Position numbers and translations under genes: made by a program | Shown: positions 1-12,677 of the stretch, in pieces | Position numbering within the stretch: the first letter of the stretch is position 1 | Layout: every line of letters begins with the position of its first letter | The notes under the pieces: model-generated | Database searches by the model: none | What the model saw: only the letters and a program-made list of their open reading frames with translations | Told to the model about the DNA's origin: nothing | From: Nitrospirota bacterium | GTDB lineage: Bacteria > Nitrospirota > Nitrospiria > 2-01-FULL-66-17 | Direction of reading: 5' to 3' | Length of the DNA: 64,000 nt | Assembly (NCBI GenBank): GCA_049325335.1 | Contig: JBMOMC010000045.1 | Coordinates: 50,032-114,031, forward strand

Positions 1-259
1 GTCACAGAACCTACCGCGGTCTTGGCGTGACTGAAACAAAGCCAATTATGGAGCGAGATAAGAGGCGGGACGTGGTCACAGAACCTACCGCGGTCTTGGC
101 GTGACTGAAACACAGCAGCACGCCCATCCCCGTCAGAATCCCCATCGGTCACAGAACCTACCGCGGTCTTGGCGTGACTGAAACTGACTCCGCACGTCTC
201 GCCTGGATCGATGCCCTCCAAAGTCACAGAACCTACCGTAGTCGCGACGCAACTGAACC
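1..259 (-). CRISPR. CRISPR array end (probably continues left of the window): 37-bp repeats at 1-37, 75-111, 148-184 and a degenerate repeat at 223-259; spacers 37, 36 and 38 bp
   Basis: Three exact copies of GTCACAGAACCTACCGCGGTCTTGGCGTGACTGAAAC with unique spacers; the fourth copy has 8 mismatches. Minus-strand orientation (GTTTCAG... start) inferred from the anti-repeat and cas gene. Confidence 0.96.
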
Positions 260-286
260 GACAGCAGTGGCCACATACACACCAAT

Positions 287-455
287 AAAAACAGAGCATC
301 TGAGCTCGCCGGGCTCCCTTGATTCAGAAGTACGAAGCAGACCGAACTGCTCAATCCGGCCGTTCACCACAAGGGGTGTCGCGGTCTCCCATCGGTTCGC
401 CCTAGAACCGACGGTCGTACCGCCCGGCTCTTTTCAGCCGTAAGACCAAGACGTT
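287..455 (-). ncRNA. Putative tracrRNA
   Basis: Minus strand 452-431 reads GUCUUGG-UCUUAC-GGCUGAAAA, complementary to the repeat 5' end GUUUCAGUC-ACG-CCAAGAC (lower stem, bulge, upper stem). It is followed by hairpins (390-413, ~335-350) and a GAGC-UCAGAU-GCUC hairpin plus U-tract ending ~287. Ends are approximate. Confidence 0.8.
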
Positions 456-477
456 GGGCAAATGCCCAAACTATTCG

Positions 478-491
478 GTTGTCAAAGAACG
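478..491 (-). promoter_or_regulatory. boxA-like antitermination motif CGTTCTTTGACAAC upstream of tracrRNA/array
   Basis: Resembles the boxA consensus GYTCTTT(A/G)ANA; lies between the cas9 stop and the tracrRNA. It also contains a TTGACA hexamer. Confidence 0.4.
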
Positions 492-541
492 GGACTACTT
501 ACTTGAACGGAGTCGATTATCGAGAACTTCCCTTGTTGCTG

Positions 542-3500
542 TCAAACGGTACTCGTTACAGCCACCGTTGGCCCAACACGGACATCAGTGATTCGCTCAA
601 ACACGCCTGATGGCCAGTCGCCACTCCGGTGGTTGTGATAAAAATACGATGTCCCGTCATCGCGAATCAGCGTGCAGCCCGCACGCACCCAATGAATCTC
701 TCCACAGAGGGCGTGAGTTCGCATCCACTCAGAAATTGCGCGACGTTTCTTAAAGACTCTCGGCCGCAACGGTGTTTTATCGTGCGCCAAGGGCTGAATC
801 AATTCAGCCGGGAGCACGGGGACATCGCGATATGACTTTCGTTCAGGCTCCCGATCGAGCGACCAATCAGCGCGAATGCTCAAGACGATCGGCTTTTCTC
901 TTGCTACGCCGCCAGCAGGCGTCTTTCGATAACCCACGACTTTAAAGAGCACACCAGAGCTCGCCGCCCGATAGTGCGTGTGACTACCACGACGCAGCGG
1001 AGTGACTTCTCCCCGCCCTTCCTGTATGAGACGAACGGAGAAGTCTTTGGGAATATCGGTCGGTTTCGCATCAGCCTTTCCAAGAAACTCCTGAATGGCC
1101 TGCCACCGCGCCTGGATCGTCGGATGCACCACATGCGATGCGTTCGGCCCCGGCCTGTCATAACCGCGGGCCGTATTACGATACCATACGACCAGAGCGG
1201 TTCCCACCGCATCGCGCCCGCCACGCGCGAACGCCTCGCGGAGACATTGCTGAAGGCGCGGGTGACAGATCCGGCGAATTAAGTCGCCTCCATTCTCTGA
1301 GTCACTGCTGAGATGATCCCAAAAGTCTTGAACGGATTTCCGAATAGCCAGTACTGGACCGCCGCCATTTTCCCTCGGCCGATAGCTATACAGATTTTTG
1401 TCAAACGAGGACTTCTTCACCGTCGGAGGCGCCACTGCAGTCAGCGCAACTCCCGGGTGTTCCGTCGCTTTCTCCTTCGCGCCCCGGGATTTCCGTACGC
1501 GCCCTCCCACCACTCCCAGCGTTGTCTTGGCTTCGAGGCCAGCCAGGGGCTCGACGGCGCTCAAGGTAAACCGGCCATCCTGGCGAAAGTGCGGATCAAC
1601 GGCGTCCGCCGCGCCCTGAATCGCCACATAAGCGTCTCGGCCGAATCGTTCGGCGATGGCCAACTTCGGAAATCCTTCAGCGGCGGCGCCGAGGGCCAAC
1701 ACGTATGCGTCCAGCGCGTGATTATCGACTTTATCGCCCTGACGTTTCGCCACAGTCTTTTCGAAACCGTTGGCCACCGCGTCGCGGAGAATGGCGGTAT
1801 GGCGACCGGAAATACGCCGGACCTGCGTGGCGTCCTGCAGATTCAACCCGAATTCTTCAGCCAATAATCTTCGAAGATGCGCGGCATACCGAGAGACCGC
1901 CGTCGTCTGTACCATCCAACGTCCGGCCATGTCCAATAGTGAGTGCTCCGCGCGCTCAACGTCACCTTTGTTTTGCTTGACGTGCTCAGTCATTCGCTCT
2001 GCCGTAAGGTTCTGCAAAAGTCCCTTCTTGACCTCAATGATCGGGTGAATTGCGCCGTTTCGGCTCCTGGCGCGCTGTTTTCGTTCTTCGACTGAATGCC
2101 CAAAAGCCGCCAGCGCCTCGGGAGCAATCGACAACCGGCGACGGAACAACGAATGTTTCCCTTTTTCACGGTTGCATCGTGTGTGACAGGGAACGCGCGC
2201 TAAATACCCATCCATCGGAAACCGCGAGCCGGCAAACATGTGGTCCTCTTCGAGGTCCTTCTCGATACTCCGACCGCAATAGGCACACAGGCCGCCGAAT
2301 TCCTCGCGCAGCATCTTCTTCGTGTCACCGTCATAGTCAGCCTTGGGACCATACCAATACAGATCATAGGCCAAGCTCTCGTTCACCCGATCAGAGGAAC
2401 GCGCGCTCGCCGTTCCGTACGTGCGCGGCTTCTTCCTCAAAATCTTCACCGCGTCGAAACCGGTTGATTCAATCACCAGCCGATCAACCGTCTGCCCGTG
2501 AAGCAACGGTAATACCCTCCGTTTCAGGTACGCCAACATTTTGTCGCCGACAATGGAAACCCGCCGCGAGACATCCGCTGATTCGGCCTTCTCGGGCCAA
2601 CGTTCGCCGGCGCGAAAGCGCTGGATGAACTCCTCTTGATGAACGCGGCACCACCGCGATCGAGCAGCCCGGCCCGATGAATCCCGCTTTCTCGCCTCTT
2701 GAAATTCCCGCTCAACTGTTTCTCGGATGTTTTCCCGCTTGGCCTTTCCGAGCCATCGCTGTACGACCTTAAAATCGGATGTAGTGGAGTTTGCCGAGTT
2801 TGTTAGCCAATCAGCCAGAATCTGTTTCGCGCTCGCTCGGCGTCCACGCGACGAGGGAGGTTCTGGGTGCTCAGCCTTCACCGCATCAACGATCGCCTGG
2901 TCGAATTGACTTATCGCTTCGGAAGGCATGAGTGTGCTCTTCACGGCTTGTTCACACACGCTGGCGATCATCTCGCGGGAAATAATGGCACGGAACGGTT
3001 CCAGCTTGCCTTGAATGCCAAGGACAAGCGATCCGACGCCTTGGCGACCAACACGGTTCCGACAACCCTCCCACGCGCAAACACCAACGCCCCGCGCATT
3101 GATCCGCATCGGCCTCCGAGATCGCCTCCCCAATATCGAGCGCGCAATCAGGTGTGTCCGTTGGGCGCGGTCTGAGTCGGTGATAAACGATTCCAAGAAC
3201 GTCCTGAGCTGCTGCAGGAATTCGGCGTTCGGAAGCGAGGCACTCGAAGGCTGTTCATCCTCGGATTTGTTCTCGTCATCACCCCAGAAATGACCGCGGC
3301 GCTTGCAGTAGGCGAGCACCACGCGAGCCGTCTCTGCGTCGTCATGCAGAGGACCCGCGTGGCCCGTCAGCGCGTCCTGTAGACGCTTGAGGCGTCTTTT
3401 CCGTTCGTGATACGTCCTCCGTATCCGGCGCATCTGGGCACGCGGCTCGACCATCTCTTTGAGGGGTTTCTCTTCGAGATAGAGTGTGCCCACATACAGT

Positions 3501-3604
3501 GGGGTGGCGACGTTTTGGGTTGGATCAAACCGCACCAATGCCACGCCATGATGAATCTGGCCCGTGTCGATCGCCAAGAGATGGAACGGACGATTCGCGT
3601 TCAT
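542..3604 (-). CDS. cas9: Compact Cas9-family RNA-guided nuclease (type II-D / SMART-like), 1020 aa
   Basis: RuvC-I LLAIDTG, Arg-rich bridge helix RAQMRRIRRTYHERKRRL, RRSRR motif, Zn-ribbon CAWEGC...WCRVH, RuvC-II LVIES, HNH CAYC...EDH...CHTRCNREKG, RuvC-III NHALDA; adjacent array and anti-repeat. Confidence 0.9.
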   Translation of the reverse strand: MNANRPFHLLAIDTGQIHHGVALVRFDPTQNVATPLYVGTLYLEEKPLKEMVEPRAQMRRIRRTYHERKRRLKRLQDALTGHAGPLHDDAETARVVLAYCKRRGHFWGDDENKSEDEQPSSASLPNAEFLQQLRTFLESFITDSDRAQRTHLIARSILGRRSRRPMRINARGVGVCAWEGCRNRVGRQGVGSLVLGIQGKLEPFRAIISREMIASVCEQAVKSTLMPSEAISQFDQAIVDAVKAEHPEPPSSRGRRASAKQILADWLTNSANSTTSDFKVVQRWLGKAKRENIRETVEREFQEARKRDSSGRAARSRWCRVHQEEFIQRFRAGERWPEKAESADVSRRVSIVGDKMLAYLKRRVLPLLHGQTVDRLVIESTGFDAVKILRKKPRTYGTASARSSDRVNESLAYDLYWYGPKADYDGDTKKMLREEFGGLCAYCGRSIEKDLEEDHMFAGSRFPMDGYLARVPCHTRCNREKGKHSLFRRRLSIAPEALAAFGHSVEERKQRARSRNGAIHPIIEVKKGLLQNLTAERMTEHVKQNKGDVERAEHSLLDMAGRWMVQTTAVSRYAAHLRRLLAEEFGLNLQDATQVRRISGRHTAILRDAVANGFEKTVAKRQGDKVDNHALDAYVLALGAAAEGFPKLAIAERFGRDAYVAIQGAADAVDPHFRQDGRFTLSAVEPLAGLEAKTTLGVVGGRVRKSRGAKEKATEHPGVALTAVAPPTVKKSSFDKNLYSYRPRENGGGPVLAIRKSVQDFWDHLSSDSENGGDLIRRICHPRLQQCLREAFARGGRDAVGTALVVWYRNTARGYDRPGPNASHVVHPTIQARWQAIQEFLGKADAKPTDIPKDFSVRLIQEGRGEVTPLRRGSHTHYRAASSGVLFKVVGYRKTPAGGVAREKPIVLSIRADWSLDREPERKSYRDVPVLPAELIQPLAHDKTPLRPRVFKKRRAISEWMRTHALCGEIHWVRAGCTLIRDDGTSYFYHNHRSGDWPSGVFERITDVRVGPTVAVTSTV

Positions 3605-3625
3605 ACTCGTTTCACGGGTTGCGGC

Positions 3626-4216
3626 TCACGGCGTTGCCCGCACGCCATAGCGAGGCGTCTTCTCTCGGACACGAAACCCAATCCGCGGGCGGGGCGCTTC
3701 CGGCTCAGGCTCCCTGGGAGGGCTCAGCAGGGACATGATCTGCTGGATGACGTCGGAGATCACGCGCTCGTGAAGATCCAACCGTTCCGTCAACGTTTTC
3801 TCCACGACTGCCAGCTTCCCGGCCGAGTCCTTCTGGGCCGACAGCATGGCGCGCATTTTTACGAATGCGCGCACCACGAAGACGCTGGTCTGGATCGCGC
3901 GCTCGCTGCGCAGAATCGTGGCCGCCATGACCGCTCCGTGCTCCGTAAACGCCCAGGGCAGTTTTCGCACGCCGCCGTGGCCTGGACTTGATATCGCAAA
4001 TTGCGATATCAAGTCGGTCAGTTCTTGCCGTGTAAGCTGGAAAACGAAGTCGTGTGGAAAGCGCTTGCGGTTCCGTTTGACGGCTTCGTTGAGGCGGAGT
4101 GTCGCCACGCCATACAGCGCCGCAAGATCTCGATCGAGGATGACCTTGTGCCCCCGAACCGGGATGATGACGGAGTCAATGCCTTGCACCGCGTATCGTC
4201 CCGATTTCTGCGTCAT
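3626..4216 (-). CDS. ORF6N-domain DNA-binding protein (phage antirepressor-like)
   Basis: VRGHKVILDRDLAALYGVAT..LNEAVKRNRKRFP..F.FQLT and FTEHGAVMAATILRS signatures; C-terminal coiled coil and RIGF motif. Confidence 0.88.
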   Translation of the reverse strand: MTQKSGRYAVQGIDSVIIPVRGHKVILDRDLAALYGVATLRLNEAVKRNRKRFPHDFVFQLTRQELTDLISQFAISSPGHGGVRKLPWAFTEHGAVMAATILRSERAIQTSVFVVRAFVKMRAMLSAQKDSAGKLAVVEKTLTERLDLHERVISDVIQQIMSLLSPPREPEPEAPRPRIGFRVREKTPRYGVRATP

Positions 4217-4645
4217 GGTTCGTCCTCGATCACCGGTTCATGCCGATTCACACACGACACGCACGCACTCACCGAGTCATTCCAACAATTGCATCGAGAG
4301 AATGGCGGCCACCACGTCATCCGTGGCGAAGGAGTGGTCCACTCTAGCAGAAGCGGTCGGCGGGGAACAAGGTTGCCGCCGTTAGCTCATTCTCCGACTA
4401 CGCCGGGACCACCGCGGGTCACCGGCTCGGGTATACACCAAAATGGTCTTGGAGACCTCGGCCGCAAGGTGCAGGCGGGGCTGCCGGGCATGACGGACGA
4501 CTTGCCCTCCGGGGTTGACCACCAACAAGCGACGGCGAGTGGCCCACGCGTCCGCAACCTCTCTGGGATGCCGCGCCCGGAGCTTCGATGCCGCTGCAAT
4601 CGCTTGCTAATCCCCCTGTGCTTGTCCTATAGTGCCCCCGCTGCA

Positions 4646-6130
4646 ATGGATGATCTGAACGATCAAATCCGCTCGCGTCTCGCCAAGCTCGACACGCTCA
4701 ACGCCCTCGGCATCGCTCCGTTCGGCCGGCGATTCGTGCCCGATGACTCGGCCCAGGACGTGCACCGGCGGTTCGGCGCGCTGTCGCGGGAACGGTTGGA
4801 CGCGGACACGCCGTCCGCGGAAGTGGCGGGGCGAATCGTGGGGTTGCGGCGGTTCGGCAAGGCCGCGTTCGTCCACCTGCAGGACGCGAGCGGGCGAATC
4901 CAAACGTATTTGAAGCGCGACGCGCTGTCGGCCGCGGATTTTGCCGTGGTGGAACAATTGGACCTGGGCGACTACATCGGCGTGCGCGGGAGGGTGTTCC
5001 GCACTAAAACCGAGGAACTGACCGTGGAAGCGCGCGAGGTGGTGCACCTCGCCAAGGCGTTGCGCCCGCTCCCCGAGAAATGGCACGGACTCACCGACGT
5101 GGAGATCCGCTACCGGCAGCGTTATTTGGATTTGATCGCCAATCCGGAGGTCAAAAATACGTTCGTGCGTCGAAGCCGGATTATCCAAGGCATCCGGAAT
5201 TTCTTCAACGCCAAGGGTTTTCTCGAGGTCGAGACGCCCATGATGCAGGGCATGGCGGGCGGTGCGGCAGCGCGGCCGTTTGTCACGCACCATAACGCGC
5301 TGAGCACGGACCTGTACCTGCGCATCGCGCCGGAGTTGTATTTGAAGCGCCTGATCGTGGGCGGGTTCGAACGCGTCTACGAGATCAACCGCAATTTCCG
5401 CAACGAGGGAATCTCCACCATCCACAACCCCGAGTTCACGATGTTGGAGTTTTACCTCGCGTACGCGGACGTGACCGACTTGCTGCCGATGACCGAGGAC
5501 TTGATCACCACGTTGGCCAAAGACGTGTGTGGCACGTTGGAGCTGACCTATCAAGGCAAAACCATTGACCTGCGGCCGCCGTGGAAGCGCATCGGCATGC
5601 TGGACGCCGTTGCGGAACGACACCACGTGACTCGCGACACGGTCCGGGACCGCGACGCGGCCTCGCGCCTCGCGCGGTCGGTCGGGGTGCCGGTCAAACC
5701 CGACGACACGCTGGGTCAGATCCAGGCCGCGTTGTTCGAACATTCGGTCGAAGCCGATATCGTCAATCCCACGTTCATCACGGACTTTCCGACCGACATC
5801 TCCCCGCTCGCCAAACGGCGCGCGGACGACCACTCGCTCACCGAACGATTCGAGTTGTTGATCGCGGGCCGCGAAGTGGCCAATGGATTTTCCGAATTGA
5901 ACGATCCCATCGACCAGCGCCAGCGGTTTGAAGCGCAGGCCGCGCAACGGGCGCGCGGCGACGAAGAAGCGCACCGCGTGGACGAAGATTTTCTTCGGGC
6001 GCTGGAGCACGGCATGCCGCCCACCGCGGGTGAAGGCATCGGCATCGACCGACTGGTGATGCTGCTGACGGACCAGTCGTCGATCCGCGACGTCATTCTC
6101 TTCCCCCAGATGAAACCAGAAGCCCCGTAG
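4646..6130 (+). CDS. lysS: Lysyl-tRNA synthetase (class II)
   Basis: RYRQRYLDL, LYLRIAPELYLKRL, FRNEG, GMPPTAGEGIGIDRL; start placed at ATG 4646, not at the ORF-track start. Confidence 0.97.
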   Translation: MDDLNDQIRSRLAKLDTLNALGIAPFGRRFVPDDSAQDVHRRFGALSRERLDADTPSAEVAGRIVGLRRFGKAAFVHLQDASGRIQTYLKRDALSAADFAVVEQLDLGDYIGVRGRVFRTKTEELTVEAREVVHLAKALRPLPEKWHGLTDVEIRYRQRYLDLIANPEVKNTFVRRSRIIQGIRNFFNAKGFLEVETPMMQGMAGGAAARPFVTHHNALSTDLYLRIAPELYLKRLIVGGFERVYEINRNFRNEGISTIHNPEFTMLEFYLAYADVTDLLPMTEDLITTLAKDVCGTLELTYQGKTIDLRPPWKRIGMLDAVAERHHVTRDTVRDRDAASRLARSVGVPVKPDDTLGQIQAALFEHSVEADIVNPTFITDFPTDISPLAKRRADDHSLTERFELLIAGREVANGFSELNDPIDQRQRFEAQAAQRARGDEEAHRVDEDFLRALEHGMPPTAGEGIGIDRLVMLLTDQSSIRDVILFPQMKPEAP

Positions 6131-6154
6131 GGGCGCACGGCCGTGCGCCCCGCC
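6127..6154. repeat. GTAG-type REP palindrome overlapping the lysS stop
   Basis: GTAGGGGCGCACGGCCGTGCGCCCC hairpin; related copy at 63451-63478. Confidence 0.65.
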
Positions 6155-6165
6155 ACGATCAGCCG

Positions 6166-7416
6166 GTGAGCTATCACATCCTGATCGCGCTCCGTTACCT
6201 GCGCGCCAAGCGGCGACAGCGCACGGTTTCGCTCAACACGTTCATCTCGATCGCGGGAGTCACGTTGGGCGTGGCCGCGCTCATCGCCACGCTGGCGGTG
6301 ATGAGCGGATTCGAGGAAAACCTGCGGGAGAAGATCCTCGGCACCACCGCGCACGTCGTGGTCGTGGATCGGGCTCAGCGGCCGATCGAAGATTACGACG
6401 CAACGGTCAAGACCGTGTCGGCCGTGCCGCACGTGGTGGCGGCCGCGCCGTTCATCGTCAATCAGGTCTTGCTCACAGCGGACTCCAACGTACACGGCGT
6501 GGTGCTGCGGGGCATCGACCCCGCGATCGAAGGCGCGGTGACCGATGTGGAGCGCAACTTGATCGACGGCCGACTGGCCGACCTCACCGCCGAGTTCCCC
6601 CCGCCTCCGGACAAACCCGAGCTCTCGTCGCGCCACGGCATCATCATCGGCAGGGAACTGGCGTTACGCCTGGGCGTGTTCATGGGCGATACGCTCAACG
6701 TGGTGTCCCCCCAGGGCACCATGGGCCCGTTCGGCGTGGTGCCCAAACTGCGTCCGTATCAGGTGGTGGGGCTCTTTGAGTCCGGCATGTACGACTACGA
6801 TTCCTCGTTCGCGTACATCTCGCTCGCGCAGGCCCAAGACTTCTTCCAACTCGGCGCCGGCGTGACCGGAATCGAAATCAAGGTCGATGACATCTTTCGC
6901 GCCGCCAACGTGGCGATCGCGGTGGAGGCCGCGCTCGACGGCCGATTCTGGGTCCGGGATTGGAAGGAGATGAACCGCAATCTCTTCTCCGCGCTCAAGC
7001 TCGAAAAGGTCATCATGTTCATCATCCTGGTGCTGATCATCCTGGTGGCCGCGTTCAACATCATCGGCACCCTCACCATGATCGTGATTGAAAAGTCGCG
7101 CGAGATCGCGATCCTGAAAGCCATGGGGGCGACCCGACGCGCGATCATGGGCATCTTCATGCTGGACGGCTTGATCATCGGCGGCGTGGGCGTGGCCATC
7201 GGCATCCCACTGGGGTACCTCGTCTGCTGGGCGATCGAGACGTTCTACACGTTGCCGGCCGACGTGTACTACATCAGCCACATTCCGGTTCGCATCTACG
7301 CCTTCGACGTGGCGTTGGTCGCGGGCTCGGCGTTCCTCATCACGTTCCTCGCCACGGCCTATCCGTCGTGGCAAGCCGGGCGCCTCGCACCGGTCGAAGC
7401 CCTGCGGTATGAGTGA
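6166..7416 (+). CDS. lolE: Lipoprotein-releasing ABC transporter permease LolC/E
   Basis: [43 protein letters not shown]. Confidence 0.92.
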   Translation: MSYHILIALRYLRAKRRQRTVSLNTFISIAGVTLGVAALIATLAVMSGFEENLREKILGTTAHVVVVDRAQRPIEDYDATVKTVSAVPHVVAAAPFIVNQVLLTADSNVHGVVLRGIDPAIEGAVTDVERNLIDGRLADLTAEFPPPPDKPELSSRHGIIIGRELALRLGVFMGDTLNVVSPQGTMGPFGVVPKLRPYQVVGLFESGMYDYDSSFAYISLAQAQDFFQLGAGVTGIEIKVDDIFRAANVAIAVEAALDGRFWVRDWKEMNRNLFSALKLEKVIMFIILVLIILVAAFNIIGTLTMIVIEKSREIAILKAMGATRRAIMGIFMLDGLIIGGVGVAIGIPLGYLVCWAIETFYTLPADVYYISHIPVRIYAFDVALVAGSAFLITFLATAYPSWQAGRLAPVEALRYE

Positions 7417-8122
7417 GCCGATCATCCGGACCGAGGGACTGTGTAAGTCCTTCGCGATCGGACGGGACACGATTCACGTCCTGCGCAGCATCGACTTGAT
7501 CATTGCGCGCGGCGAAACGGTCGGGCTGGTGGGCGCGTCCGGCGCGGGCAAGAGCACGCTCTTGCATCTCTTGGGCGGATTGGACCGACCCAGCAACGGC
7601 GCGATCACCGTGGATAACGTGCGCGTGGATCAACTGCGCGAAGCCGAGTTGGAACCGTTCCGCAATCGTACCGTCGGGTTCATCTTCCAGTTCCACCACC
7701 TGTTGCCGGAATTCACCGCGCTGGAAAACGTGATGATGCCGGGGCTGATCCGCGGACTCGCGCAGGCCGAGATGCGCGAGCGCGCGCGACACATCCTGGA
7801 CGCCGTCGGGTTGGGCCCCCGACTCGCGCATCGACCGGGCGAACTCTCCGGGGGCGAACAACAGCGCGTGGCCATCGCCCGCGCGCTCGTGCTGGAGCCG
7901 CCGGTGGTGCTGGCGGACGAGCCCACCGGCAACCTCGACACCCACACCGGCGACGACGTGATGGCCGTGCTCAAGCGCCTACGTCAGGCGCGCGGGACGA
8001 CCTTCTTGATCGTCACGCACAACGAAAAACTGGCGACTGAAACGGATCGGGTGATCCGGATGGTGGATGGGAAGATCGAAGGGACGAGTGGGGGAGTGGG
8101 CGAGGGGGAGAGTGGGCGATAA
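7409..8122 (+). CDS. lolD: Lipoprotein-releasing ABC transporter ATPase
   Basis: Walker [34 protein letters not shown]; overlaps the permease. Confidence 0.93.
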
Positions 8123-8184
8123 AGGCGCTAACGACTTTTCACCCCCTCATCCCTTCTCCCACTCTCCCCCGTCGTCCTTGCCCT

Positions 8185-9297
8185 TCAGAACCCCAGGCTG
8201 AGTTGCGCCACGTGGCGGCGGTCCGGGTCTTGGCCTGCGAACGCGCCGACTTCTTCGATGGAATACGCGTACGCGATCTTCAGGATTCGCAGATCCATCG
8301 TGGCGCCGGCCGCAAGATATCCTTGATTCATCCCGACGCGTAACGAGAGCACAGCGGGGAACGCGAACTCCGCGCCGGCGTGGAGTCGTTTACCCATGTC
8401 GTTATCCGCACCCAACTCTTTGGTCACATCCAACATATCCGCGGCCAGGGTCAACCGGCCGAACCCGAGCGACGGCTCCAGCGCAACCCCCATGTTGATC
8501 TGCTGCGGCAAAATTCCCGCGTCCCCCAAGTCTACGTCTCCGATGTTTTGGACCGCGACCCCCACCGAAGGACTCAGCGGCAGGGGGAATCCCAGGATCA
8601 CACCCGCGTCGAACCCGAACCCGGACCCGTCGAGCAAATCGCGATCCAGGTCGATGCCATCCTGTTGAACCAAGTCGTTCGCGGTGTAGGATTGATCCAG
8701 CAACGACCGTTGCACGTATTTGCCGGTCACCCCCACGCGCAGCGTGGATCCGAACGGCGAAAACCCCATGGCCCCGGACACTACGCCCGCGATGTCGTAT
8801 CCCCCGCGAATATCGAGCGCGTTACTCCCAGCAGCGTTGTGGACGGCCCCGTCGAACTGGCCCTGCCCCAACACCCCGACTCCGAAATTATGAACGGTCA
8901 GATTCGGGAACACCGCGGCCCGAGCATGGAAACGTTCTCCCAACCACTTGTCGAGCAGATCCGCGGCCAGGATCGCCTGTTGGGTTTCGTCCTGCGCGTC
9001 CGCCACGTCTTGCAGGTCCTGGGCAAATTCGATCGTGTTGGTGCTGATTGCGGCCAACGGATTGAGCAGATCAAACCGCCCGAATCCCTTGATCTTGTTC
9101 AGCCCGGCGGGGTTATACATCATCGCGTTTTCATCGTCGGCCACCGCGGTAAATGCGCCCCCCATCCCCAACGGACGGATGCCTTGATAGAACAAGGGCA
9201 ATGGATCAGCCCACGCGGCGCTCGTGTGCGCGACCGCGAGACACACCCCCAGGGTGACGCCCCTGCCCCAGCCTGACATACCCCGTCTATACAACAC
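8185..9297 (-). CDS. Outer-membrane beta-barrel, TraF-like/PorV-like family
   Basis: Signal peptide, RPLGMGGAFTAVADD..A..YNPAGL motif, C-terminal Phe (QLSLGF). Confidence 0.75.
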   Translation of the reverse strand: MLYRRGMSGWGRGVTLGVCLAVAHTSAAWADPLPLFYQGIRPLGMGGAFTAVADDENAMMYNPAGLNKIKGFGRFDLLNPLAAISTNTIEFAQDLQDVADAQDETQQAILAADLLDKWLGERFHARAAVFPNLTVHNFGVGVLGQGQFDGAVHNAAGSNALDIRGGYDIAGVVSGAMGFSPFGSTLRVGVTGKYVQRSLLDQSYTANDLVQQDGIDLDRDLLDGSGFGFDAGVILGFPLPLSPSVGVAVQNIGDVDLGDAGILPQQINMGVALEPSLGFGRLTLAADMLDVTKELGADNDMGKRLHAGAEFAFPAVLSLRVGMNQGYLAAGATMDLRILKIAYAYSIEEVGAFAGQDPDRRHVAQLSLGF

Positions 9298-10108
9298 AGT
9301 TCACCCCCGTCAGATCAAATCCCTGCCTGGTCAGATAACCTTGGAGGTCGTCGCACGTCACGGCATTTCCGGCGTCCCCATCCTCGTTGTTAATGTCGAA
9401 CAGGATCGTGTTGATCGAGTCCTGTACCTCGGAACTCACGCCCAGCCCTCCCAGCACTCCGGACGCATTGTTGAGCGCATCGACGATGTCGGACACGTTC
9501 GTGGTCGAAATATCACACCCCGCGATCGCGCCCTGTGTGGCGGCGCAATCCACCACTCCGTTCACGTAGTTGAGGATGTCGCTCACCGTGAGCACCGCCT
9601 TGACCATCTCCACGAGCGCCAAGATAAACGCCGCGTCATCGTCATCGTTGTACGCCAGCGGCGGGCTGGCGCTCAGATCCGCAGCCAACAGCGTCTCGGC
9701 CGACGCAATTTCCGCGGGCCACGTAGTGCTCATGGACGTCAGGGCCGCGTCCGCAATCTGTTCGAACACTTGGTTGCTGGTCACGTCGCCGCTGCCGAAC
9801 ATGGCCGCCACGCTGATAAACTCCGTGACATCAAACCCCGCCGCGCACAAATACGCGGCCGAAAGATCGAGCCGGCGCGCCACGTTGGTCGGATCAGCGG
9901 TCTGCAACTCCTCGAATAACGTGACGGCGGTGCCGCAATCTCCGCTGTCCAACGCGGATTGCGCCACCGCCAGCTTGGCCTCCGCAGATTCTTCGTCCGC
10001 GAACCCGGAGAGCAAATTATTGTCACCACATGAGAGCAGAATCCCCCCCAACAGCCCCATGGCGACCCACCCGGGAATTCGGTACATCAACCCCTTACAT
10101 GTGAACAT
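9287..10108 (-). CDS. Acidic helical lipoprotein with TPR-like segment
   Basis: Lipobox LLSC, helical repeat; coupled to the barrel gene; start uncertain. Confidence 0.65.
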   Translation of the reverse strand: MFTCKGLMYRIPGWVAMGLLGGILLSCGDNNLLSGFADEESAEAKLAVAQSALDSGDCGTAVTLFEELQTADPTNVARRLDLSAAYLCAAGFDVTEFISVAAMFGSGDVTSNQVFEQIADAALTSMSTTWPAEIASAETLLAADLSASPPLAYNDDDDAAFILALVEMVKAVLTVSDILNYVNGVVDCAATQGAIAGCDISTTNVSDIVDALNNASGVLGGLGVSSEVQDSINTILFDINNEDGDAGNAVTCDDLQGYLTRQGFDLTGVNCVV

Positions 10109-10256
10109 GGCTGACCTCTTGCACGATGAACGGTTCGTTGAAACCCACCACCGGCTCACTATATCGGAGCCCGACGGATTGTCAACGACACCCGGCCACG
10201 GCGCGTCGAGCGCCCGTCGGGTCGGCGAACGCCTGTTGTCGGCGAGAAAACCGCGA

Positions 10257-10607
10257 TTACTGCGGGCGAGGATCCGGGGCTGCAAGGGTCGTAATCTGGA
10301 TCGCGCGGAACACGTCCGTCCCGCGGATGTTCTCGAAGAACTCGGCTTGCACCTTGATCTGTTTCCCCTTGGTGAGGCCGGGGTGCAGCCCGATGAGGGC
10401 GATCCCCTGCCCCGACGCGAACCCTACCGCGGTGATGGACAACATTTCATTGTCGTACGGCACTTCGGTGTGGATGATGTTGTCGATTTCGCCGGAAAGG
10501 GTCGTCTTCGTGCCCTTCTTCATGTGGGTGAACCCGGACCCGCCGCAGCCCACCGGCACCACCACGAGCAGCACCCACACCGCCAATCGCAGCATACGAA
10601 CGGTCAT
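10257..10607 (-). CDS. Small hypothetical lipoprotein
   Basis: Hydrophobic leader with PVGC lipobox; GGAGG RBS; follows trpA. Confidence 0.6.
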   Translation of the reverse strand: MTVRMLRLAVWVLLVVVPVGCGGSGFTHMKKGTKTTLSGEIDNIIHTEVPYDNEMLSITAVGFASGQGIALIGLHPGLTKGKQIKVQAEFFENIRGTDVFRAIQITTLAAPDPRPQ

Positions 10608-10620
10608 CGCATTCCTCCGG

Positions 10621-11442
10621 TCATGACGCTTCCACGGCGGGCAACGCGGCTTTCAGCGAAGCCACGAACGCGCGCGCCTCATTGATCCGACGCTGGGGAT
10701 CGGACTGCGACTGCAAACGTTTAATCAGCGCGGACGCCACGATGACCCCGTCCGCCACGCGGGCGATGGGTCCCGCCTCTCCGGGCGTGGACACCCCGAA
10801 ACCCACGGCGACCGGCAAATCCGTCACCCGCTTGATCCGCGTCACGCCGTGCGCCACCTCATCGAGCGCGGGCAGCTTGGACCCGGTGATCCCGGTCAGC
10901 GACACATAGTACAGAAATCCTCCGGCCCGCCGCGCGATCAATTTGACGCGGGCAGCCGGCGTGGTGGGCGCGATCAGGTAAATGAGGTGCAGTCCTGCGG
11001 CGCGGGCCGCGTCGTCCAAAGGGCCCGCTTCCTCGGGCGGCAAATCCGGCACGATCAACCCATCCACCCCGGCCGCGGCCGCCTCGTTCGCCAGCCGCAC
11101 GTCGCCGTATTGAAAGATCAGGTTGTAGTAAGTCATGAACAGTAATGGGATCTGGACCGTCGCGCGCAGCCGGCGCACCAAGGCCAGGGCGTCGGCGAGC
11201 GTGACCTTCTGCGTCAGCGCGCGCTCGGCCGCGCGTTGCAGCACCGGACCGTCGGCCAATGGATCCGAAAACGGCACGCCGATCTCCAACAGGTCCGCGC
11301 CGGCCGCGGCCGCGGCCAGGGCCAGGGCTTCGGTCGTTTCCACGTCGGGATCACCCAACATCACGTACGGGATCAGCGCTTTCGCTCCGCGCGCGCGCAA
11401 CTCGGCGAACGTCCGGTCGATGCGGTTCGCGGATCGGGTCAC
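10621..11442 (-). CDS. trpA: Tryptophan synthase alpha
   Basis: [32 protein letters not shown]. Confidence 0.97.
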
Positions 11443-12677
11443 AGTTCGATCCCCCTGATCTTGGCCACCTCTTGCACGTCTTTATCTCCGCGTCCGGACA
11501 GGTTCACGATGACCACGTCGCGCGTTCGCATCCTGGGCGCGAGCGCGGCCACGTGGGCGATCGCGTGCGCGGACTCCAACGCCGGGATGATGCCTTCGGT
11601 CCGGCTCAACACATCGAACGCTTCCAGCGCCTCTTTGTCGGTCACCGACGTGTACTCGATCCGTCCCAGATCGCGGTACCACGCGTGCTCCGGCCCCACC
11701 GCGGAATAATCCAACCCGGCGGACACCGAGTGTGTGATCTGGATTTGCCCGTTCGGGTCTTGCAGCACTACGGTCTTGGTGCCCTGGAACACGCCGGTGC
11801 GGCCGGTGGCGAATCGCGCGGCATGTTGCCCGGTCTCCACGCCGTGCCCGCCCGCTTCCACGCCGATCATGCGCACCCCGGAGTCCTTGAGAAATCCCGA
11901 GAACAGGCCGATCGCGTTGCTCCCGCCGCCCACGCAGGCCACGAGCGCGGTGGGCAGTCGTCCTTCCGCCCGCAGGATCTGACGCCGCGCCTCGCGGCCG
12001 ATCACGGATTGAAAGTCGCGCACCATCATCGGGTACGGGTGGGGCCCTAACACGGAACCCAGGATGTAGTGCGTGGTCCGCACGTTGGTGGTCCAGTCGC
12101 GCAGCGCCTCGTTAATGGCGTCCTTGAGCGTGCGGCTGCCCGCGGCCACCGGCACCACGGTGGCGCCCAACAGCCGCATGCGAAACACGTTGAGCGATTG
12201 GCGCGCCATGTCTTCGGTGCCCATGTACACGTCGCACGACAGGCCGAGCAGCGCCGCGGCCGTGGCCGTGGCCACGCCGTGCTGCCCCGCGCCGGTTTCC
12301 GCGATGATGCGGCCCTTGCCCATGCGTTGGGCGAGCAACGCCTGTCCAATGGTGTTGTTGATCTTGTGCGCGCCGGTGTGGCACAGGTCCTCGCGTTTGA
12401 GATAAATGCGCGCGCCGCCCAAGGCCTTGCTAAGCCGCGCCGCGTGATAGAGCGGCGTGGGTCGACCCACGAACGCGGCGAGCCGGTGATCGATATCCGC
12501 GCGAAAGCGCCGATCCGTGCGGGCTTTGGCGTACTCCGCGACCAACTCCTGCAACGCCGGCATGAGGGTCTCGGGCACGAATCGCCCTCCGTACGGGCCG
12601 AAGTGGCCCGCCTCGTCCGGTACGCCGGTCGGCCTACGCGTTTTTCGCGGCTTGGATGAACGCGCGGATTTTCCCAT
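11439..12677 (-). CDS. trpB: Tryptophan synthase beta
   Basis: [34 protein letters not shown]. Confidence 0.98.

Follow-up and report, generated by a model that had tools for sequence, protein, structure and literature searches.

An MG102-like type II-D tracrRNA with an omegaRNA-like core, an apparently rearranged periphery and a candidate second pseudoknot

The window analyzed here is a 64,000-nt stretch of a Nitrospirota contig, and the RNA at positions 287-455 belongs to a CRISPR locus of type II-D (Cas9d, MG102-like) as its tracrRNA. All parts of the locus lie on the minus strand: a gene for a 1020-aa Cas9, the tracrRNA, the repeat array and cas1-cas2-cas4 (Table 1). A gap of 280 nt separates the cas9 open reading frame (3604-542) from the degenerate repeat (259-223). 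The array comprises 19 repeat copies in the genome, with one 100-nt interval containing N, and the cas1 gene at this locus is the only one in the genome. None of 68 related loci had a cas1, cas2 or cas4 match within the retrieved flanks, and cas1 had no match in genomes G431 and G432, which are possibly incomplete. Because the repeat on the tracrRNA side is degenerate, spacer acquisition probably takes place at the opposite end of the array, which is next to cas1 here. The repeat adjoining the tracrRNA is also degenerate in its 5' half in several relatives. Immediately upstream of cas9, on the same strand, is an ORF6N-domain gene (3626-4216), possibly a mobile-element remnant. The search for a PAM gave no credible protospacer, whether in phages or in the genome itself.

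Table 1. Features of the locus in transcription order (window positions, except for the last row)
Feature	Position	Strand	Remarks
cas9d gene, 1020 aa	542..3604	-	residue roles inferred from motifs
Candidate sigma-70-like promoter, 11/12	516..545	-	transcript would start near 509
boxA-like antitermination element	480..490	-	upstream of the anti-repeat
Anti-repeat	432..452	-	8 bp + 5-nt bulge + 8 bp with the 5' half of the repeat
Nexus/lower central stem, 5' strand	424..428	-	supported part of the originally predicted pairing
Inserted hairpin domain	381..423	-	stem 423-419:385-381, internal loop, stem 414-405:398-389, loop 404-399; in 3/36 cores
Upper central stem, 5' strand	370..375	-	pairs with 321-316; RNAalifold consensus; two pairs changed on both sides relative to L003/L004
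P3, nexus pseudoknot hairpin	334..365	-	365-363:336-334, unpaired C362, 361-355:346-340, loop 354-347
Upper central stem, 3' strand	316..321	-	
Nexus/lower central stem, 3' strand	308..312	-	
Nexus pseudoknot, 3' strand	302..305	-	pairs with P3 loop 352-349
Candidate second pseudoknot, 3' strand	292..297	-	with loop 404-399
U-run, likely 3' limit of the tracrRNA	286..291	-	by analogy with active MG102 sgRNAs, which have U-rich ends
First repeat in transcription order	223..259	-	5' half degenerate
Three 37-nt repeats with spacers	1..184	-	array extends past the window
cas1, cas2, cas4	G000:C45:48499-46413	-	after the array; profile matches, each above cut-off

In the Cas9 protein, RuvC-I (D13) starts at residue 7, seven residues from the start, without PLMP. 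The motifs predict an arginine-rich bridge helix, RuvC-II with E379, an HNH domain with H455/N478 and RuvC-III with H629/D632, and the catalytic residues appear intact. The REC region contains a zinc-site motif (C176-C181-C319-H322) that was invariant in all 17 aligned relatives and has the spacing of the Cas9d CCCH site.

Homologues were collected as 59 protein representatives and then as 18, 45 and 3 loci from three collections. A motif-anchored parser recovered the RNA in 47 of the 66 loci, giving 48 RNAs with the window and 36 distinct cores; two loci were added with a looser loop, and where a locus offered several tails (five loci), the last one inside 125 nt was used. Letters in the pseudoknot strands were set by the parser, which also required five of six P3 pairs, and those counts are partly built in; the lower stem was unconstrained. 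The 19 loci that gave no parse were in many cases cut at contig ends or unrelated. Four loci (L005, L021, L022 and L027) encode Cas9d with upstream arrays, and neither patterns nor the RNA model located a tracrRNA near them. The FastTree protein tree comprised 47 sequences, none of them II-A, II-B or II-C, was rooted on two MG34-type proteins and omitted four short or ambiguous entries (L014, L055, L060 and L061). The proteins of the window, L003 and L004 formed one clade with P0001-P0003 (FastTree support, 1.0). Further clade members were absent from 401 genomes of the window's phylum, in which the strong matches (L069 and L070) belonged to another branch, while among 251 genomes around G432 three matched the protein, one of them a contig-edge fragment without the RNA. 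RNA model R1 matched nothing except its training sequence in 151 genomes and in 25 sequence sources, and none of 13 pattern matches in viral contigs was this RNA. Protein matches were likewise absent from a single-protein locus search of genome contigs, from the genomes of 60 relatives and from plasmids.

Several other arrangements were seen along the way. In L069 (G318:C58:36776-39745) and L070 (G313:C12:10216-13215), a 1000-aa MG102-type cas9d lies right behind a short remnant of an MG34-type cas9d N-terminus, and the downstream repeat and tracrRNA, on the opposite strand, look MG34-type; this looks like replacement of the effector gene in place with the old RNA kept. Two loci (L014:5658-5739 and L066:5879-5960, the latter on a viral contig) have a minimal 82-nt core with no accessory hairpin, located upstream of cas9. 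Seven proteins of 940-1000 aa (P0024, P0025, P0027, P0029, P0031, P0034 and P0037) form a sister clade with a divergent HNH motif and C terminus.

The anti-repeat and the repeat form a 16-bp duplex (-20.6 kcal/mol), and five unpaired bases (433-429) precede the lower stem. The original prediction extended this stem over seven pairs, 428-422 with 314-308, and these segments are indeed an exact 7-bp Watson-Crick complement on the minus strand. However, 74 of 300 dinucleotide shuffles of 287-455 contained a perfect complement of at least 7 bp at a distance of at least 60 nt, and a 7-bp complement in a single sequence thus proves nothing. The homologues were more informative: positions 428, 427, 426, 425 and 424 paired in 36, 36, 36, 36 and 35 of the 36 distinct cores, respectively, with two-sided changes, up to four pair types per position and four clearly different versions of the stem. 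In contrast, position 423 paired in 32 of 36 cores and was G-G in the two closest relatives, and position 422 paired in only 4 of 36. Covariation thus upheld the outer five pairs, while the two inner ones, which have a probability of 0.66-0.68 in this sequence alone, failed in the two closest relatives. The long-range stem is real over 5 bp and had been overextended by probably two pairs.

Inside this stem, A363:U336 and C362 of the P3 hairpin were invariant in all 36 cores. The original drawing lacked the nexus pseudoknot; judging from the homologues, the P3 loop forms an omegaRNA-type knot with 305-302. This pairing (352-349:305-302) was present in 143 of 144 cells, and at two of its four positions both partners had changed, in one case in the window RNA. 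When a 19-pair core was evaluated on a sequence-only alignment of the 36 RNAs, 95.5% of cells were paired and 14 of the 19 pairs showed two-sided change. Shuffles gave 78.5% paired cells and never reached as high a value (0/500), a result that kinship among the sequences inflates, and slid controls gave 21-50%. The two-sided core changes fell in separate branches of the protein tree. Two hairpins had been proposed within the long-range pairing. The one at 390-413 holds as the 414-389 stem (pair probability, 1.0), and L003 and L004 have hairpins of other sequence. The one near 335-350 was not supported, with 57% of cells paired and a probability of 0.04-0.06; the conserved element there is P3 (365-334).

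Counting by eye along the MG34-1 sgRNA reproduced the residue numbers of the structure papers, so that the window core could be compared with the NsCas9d/MG34-1 cryo-EM structures (accessible text of PMC12339737, PMC11903963 and PMC11706934). By eye, lower P2 from G61:U139 onward, the base of P2 in the solved Cas9d structures, corresponds to 428-424:312-308; A82:U110 with the flipped C83 corresponds to A363:U336 with C362; and the kissing loop G94-C97:G142-C145 corresponds to 352-349:305-302. This one-to-one match of stem, P3 and nexus pseudoknot bears out the proposal of an omegaRNA-type scaffold on a long tracrRNA. The MG34-1 protein and the window Cas9 also share the CCCH zinc site and the REC-linker motif. 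Unlike the window system, MG34-1 has a P2 that runs on uninterrupted by a 5' hairpin, together with a small P4 and a single pseudoknot; its protein has 747 aa and its RNA core ~90 nt.

As the comparison of homologues shows, the RNA behind the anti-repeat closes the 5-bp stem 428-424:312-308, the base of the Cas9d/omegaRNA central helix, around P3, the loop of which is paired to 305-302 just 3' of the stem. By analogy with the Cas9d structures, the anti-repeat would pair with the crRNA repeat and RNase III would cut the duplex. The nexus stem would be held by the bridge helix and the central stem and P3 by the REC linker and zinc site, and the RNA and the 270-residue REC would jointly read the guide-target duplex for DNA cleavage.

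The predicted tracrRNA, from 452 to the end of the U-run at 286, is 167 nt long; its core has 132 nt, against 118 nt for MG102-2 and 82-135 nt over the family (36 cores). It had been described as unusually long, with II-A and II-C tracrRNAs as the only yardstick; long it is, but within its own family it is not extreme, being 14 nt longer than MG102-2. The related suggestion, that RNA length compensates for the small REC lobe, is a published idea for Cas9d in general, as far as the accessible text of the literature goes. Here, however, the extra length is not matched by a smaller REC: this region has 273 residues in the window protein, 258 in the MG102-2-like protein of L008 and 209 in an MG34-type protein, and despite this shortest REC the MG34-type RNA core is shorter, about 90 nt as counted by eye. 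The accessible literature on II-D likewise already contains the omegaRNA likeness, an RNA size intermediate between those of sgRNA and omegaRNA, and the hybrid module of RNA and REC, and an omegaRNA-like scaffold is a published II-D hallmark rather than a new trait.

Upstream of the anti-repeat, one sigma-70-like promoter candidate was found where 0.4 was expected, which is not significant alone. The boxA-like motif occurred in 35 of 36 distinct loci, 33-57 nt upstream of the anti-repeat and mostly ~40 nt before the nexus, against a background of 273/3600 and of 69/3000 random 90-mers. It is close to the boxA quoted in the accessible text of PMC7862264, which reports boxA ahead of CRISPR arrays. 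Reading the motif as a -35 box was rejected, as no -10 box lies at the proper spacing (by eye) and the start would land in the anti-repeat. The genome contains rnc and nusB, and in L003 and L004 only 7 nt separate the pseudoknot from the first repeat. On the grounds of the boxA-like motif, the promoter candidate, rnc and nusB and the 7-nt gap, the tracrRNA and array are probably made as one transcript with a boxA-protected leader, which RNase III would cut and which would then be trimmed. The occurrence of the motif in 35 of 36 loci suggests that antiterminated tracr-plus-array transcripts may be found across the MG102 lineage. Contigs of a possible source sequencing run had no differing letters in 287-455; they are not independent of the window.

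The periphery of the RNA differs from that of the rest of the family. The spacing between linker and P3 on the 5' side is 67-69 nt in the window, L003 and L004 versus 19-23 nt in the other 33 cores, while the spacing 3' of P3 is 29-33 nt in these three versus 52-69 nt in 32 of the 33 others (29 nt in L014). RNAalifold, applied unaided to the three sequences, returned the lower stem, inserted hairpin, upper stem and P3, and in L003 and L004 this comparative fold has a probability near 1 (stems, 0.99-1.0). The window sequence by itself leaves the interior ambiguous: alternative folds lie within 2 kcal/mol, and the probability is 0.13 for the upper stem, 0.45 for stem 423-419:385-381 and 0.43 for a rival long-range stem. 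The 43-nt 5'-side hairpin (423-381) and the loss of the usual 3'-side hairpins look new and appear confined to 3 of 36 RNAs and one protein clade; these variant features rest on two independent sequences, as L003 and L004 are nearly alike. The L004 cas9 (L004:5902-8980) is split over two frames of 763 and 389 codons, by a frameshift or an assembly error, and the L004 RNA may therefore be under relaxed selection. In these three RNAs, peripheral mass has shifted from the 3' side, where MG102-2 has P4 and a small junction hairpin, to a hairpin between the lower and upper central stems on the 5' side. Loss of P4 in the clade fits the tolerated deletion of P4 in MG34-1. None of the 10 MG102 and 3 MG34 sgRNAs inspected by eye in the accessible published material has a 5'-side hairpin.

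The loop of the inserted hairpin may take part in a second pseudoknot. In the window, loop 404-399 can form 6 pairs (4 of them Watson-Crick) with tail 297-292, 4 nt behind the nexus pseudoknot, and this match was noticed before the relatives' sequences were compared. In L003 and L004, a loop and tail with other letters can form 5 Watson-Crick pairs in the same loop register, 1 nt behind the nexus pseudoknot. Between the window and these relatives, two of the pairs had changed on both sides and one on one side. Among 5000 random 15-mers, 80 (by run) or 487 (by energy) matched as well as the window tail and 220 or 81 as well as that of L003, of which L004 is not independent. Swapped partners were weaker (-2.9 and -3.2 versus -6.1 and -7.7 kcal/mol), and 2 of 33 control RNAs passed the threshold, with another loop. 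Both pseudoknots face competition in the window from a tail hairpin of 4 bp (307-304:297-294). On this comparison we regard a second pseudoknot between 404-399 and 297-292 as about evenly balanced. If formed, it would clamp the inserted hairpin onto the core right behind the nexus pseudoknot and mark the mature 3' end. The same strands were rejected as the nexus pseudoknot itself, which the homologues place at 352-349:305-302. The wider proposal, that a deep MG102-like Cas9d clade uses a double-pseudoknot tracrRNA in which a hairpin at the IsrB SL3 position replaces P4 and pairs with the 3' tail, we place slightly short of an even chance. In another subclade (L011, L017, L023, L060 and L061), up to 8 bp (in L060) can form between a conserved purine-rich P4 loop and the U-rich tail, which may be a parallel case of loop-tail contact.

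The inserted hairpin could instead be a dispensable peripheral decoration that makes no tertiary contact and has a chance loop-tail match, the RNA ending a few bases after 302; this is a serious possibility, somewhat below even. Deleting P4 in MG34-1 costs no activity and SL3 of IsrB is optional and peripheral (accessible text of PMC9581776), the chance of such a match in a single case is 2-10%, and the tail hairpin competes for the same bases. Such a reading fits poorly with the recurrence of the match in the relatives with other letters and in the same loop register, with a loop that stays at 6 nt while the stem letters change, and with clade tails that, unlike most of the family, are not U-rich right after the pseudoknot. 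The variant with a 5' hairpin or second knot was not described in the accessible text of PMC12339737, PMC11706934, PMC12669027, PMC13622844, PMC11903963, PMC9581776 and PMC9755519 or in that of bioRxiv 2026.05.08.723843, 2024.04.08.588528 and 2026.08.17.745286, and a term search of the PMC9755519 supplements, whose protein cells were limited to 400 characters, gave no match to the clade motifs.

It is also conceivable, though improbable, that the same core encloses another interior, nearer to the drawing of the original prediction, in which the full 7-bp stem continues as 421-415:335-329 and encloses P3 as well as hairpins 414-389 and 385-366, while a small hairpin at 328-315 occupies the 3' junction. 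In that case the accessory hairpins would do no more than come before P3, as in the SL4/SL5 shuffling described for IsrB omegaRNAs (accessible text of PMC9581776), or the RNA would switch folds. This is the minimum-energy fold of 433-302 with the pseudoknot strands open (-56.5 kcal/mol, versus -54.8 to -56.5 for comparative-type folds), with a probability of about 0.43, but in both relatives it has a probability of 0.0 where the comparative stems have 0.99-1.0. It also leaves the two two-sided changes in the upper stem 375-370:321-316 unexplained, and only the comparative fold keeps the family order, with the upper stem directly before P3.

Membership in the OMEGA class (a single RNA with its own guide beside a 300-500-aa PLMP protein) is effectively ruled out by the anatomy of the locus: it is very improbable that an IscB-like system uses this RNA as its omegaRNA, for all its topology in common with the DtIsrB omegaRNA dot-bracket and the weak IscB and RRXRR profile matches at the Cas9 N-terminus (RRXRR below cut-off), since the protein has 1020 aa with no PLMP region ahead of RuvC-I, the guide is supplied by a separate array of 19 repeats, accompanied by cas1-cas2-cas4, the RNA has an anti-repeat, and none of 27 Rfam matches (E up to 5, window 1-12000) falls in 287-455. 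In the accessible text of PMC9581776, the DtIsrB omegaRNA shares with this RNA the nexus stem, an optional 5'-side hairpin (SL3), a short linker, the central stem, the pseudoknot hairpin, and 3-nt and 2-nt 3' linkers followed by the nexus pseudoknot. It differs in having the guide on the same RNA, terminal hairpins and a PLMP-bearing protein, and its second (adaptor) pseudoknot connects SL2 to SL5, whereas the candidate here would connect an SL3-like hairpin to the tail. The likeness to IsrB/IscB omegaRNAs is one of topology; likeness in sequence was checked by Rfam only. With its nexus stem, central stem, pseudoknot hairpin and nexus pseudoknot, the tracrRNA works in the manner of an omegaRNA core, although it is not an omegaRNA.

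The protein points to type II-D. Its best sequence matches among solved structures were 747-aa Cas9d entries, and the best fold matches of its AlphaFold model (mean pLDDT, 75.7) were NbaCas9 and a type II-D Cas9. Cas9d (NF049971) was the best of three matched NCBIfam models, at 64.5 bits far under the cut-off of 375. The REC region lies below the ~300-aa II-D criterion, and the protein exceeds the 600-970 aa given in the accessible text of PMC12339737 while falling inside the <=1050 aa of PMC9755519. The II-D set of central stem, P3 and nexus pseudoknot is present in the tracrRNA. In its scaffold letters, locus L008, which encodes a 946-aa protein, agrees with the published MG102-2 sgRNA, as does L049 with that of MG102-14, and the homologous RNA family is therefore the MG102 lineage of II-D. 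MG102-2, as described in the accessible text of PMC9755519, shares with the window the cas9-tracr-array order on a single strand, the start of the repeat, the five-purine linker, the lower stem, a P3 hairpin whose loop has 8 nt, the 2-nt linker and the 4-bp pseudoknot, and its protein is related (about 26-27% identity). In contrast, the window RNA has the 43-nt 5'-side hairpin and lacks P4 and the 3' junction hairpin; its tail is G+C-rich and complementary to the new loop, where MG102-2 has an immediate U-run; its protein is ~70 aa longer; and cas1-cas2-cas4 is present. Overall, we consider it likely that this is a II-D tracrRNA of a deep, long-branched MG102-like clade that keeps the core fold and has rearranged its periphery.

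The omegaRNA-like scaffold that headed the original prediction is known for II-D; the plausible second pseudoknot and the clade rearrangement are what looks new. For practical use, the analysis gives scaffold boundaries for a compact Cas9 ~27% identical to MG102-2, and a guide ended at the customary point, a few bases after the pseudoknot, or based on the minimum-energy fold, could fail. The locus retains cas1-cas2-cas4, absent from most MG102-like loci, which makes spacer acquisition testable in this lineage. If the double-pseudoknot proposal is true, the SL3-position hairpin was either kept from the omegaRNA ancestor or re-invented, and the second knot would be a tertiary contact absent from the accessible Cas9d literature. 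It would fix where the mature tracrRNA ends on the 3' side once cut out of a tracr-plus-array transcript, and, comparable to the lid of the omegaRNA, it could gate the region near RuvC/HNH as an RNA element. Accounts of the transition from omegaRNA to tracrRNA usually describe a steady loss of RNA. To judge from this clade, II-D scaffolds also reshuffle their outer parts and may acquire a tertiary contact, with a protein that is larger rather than smaller.
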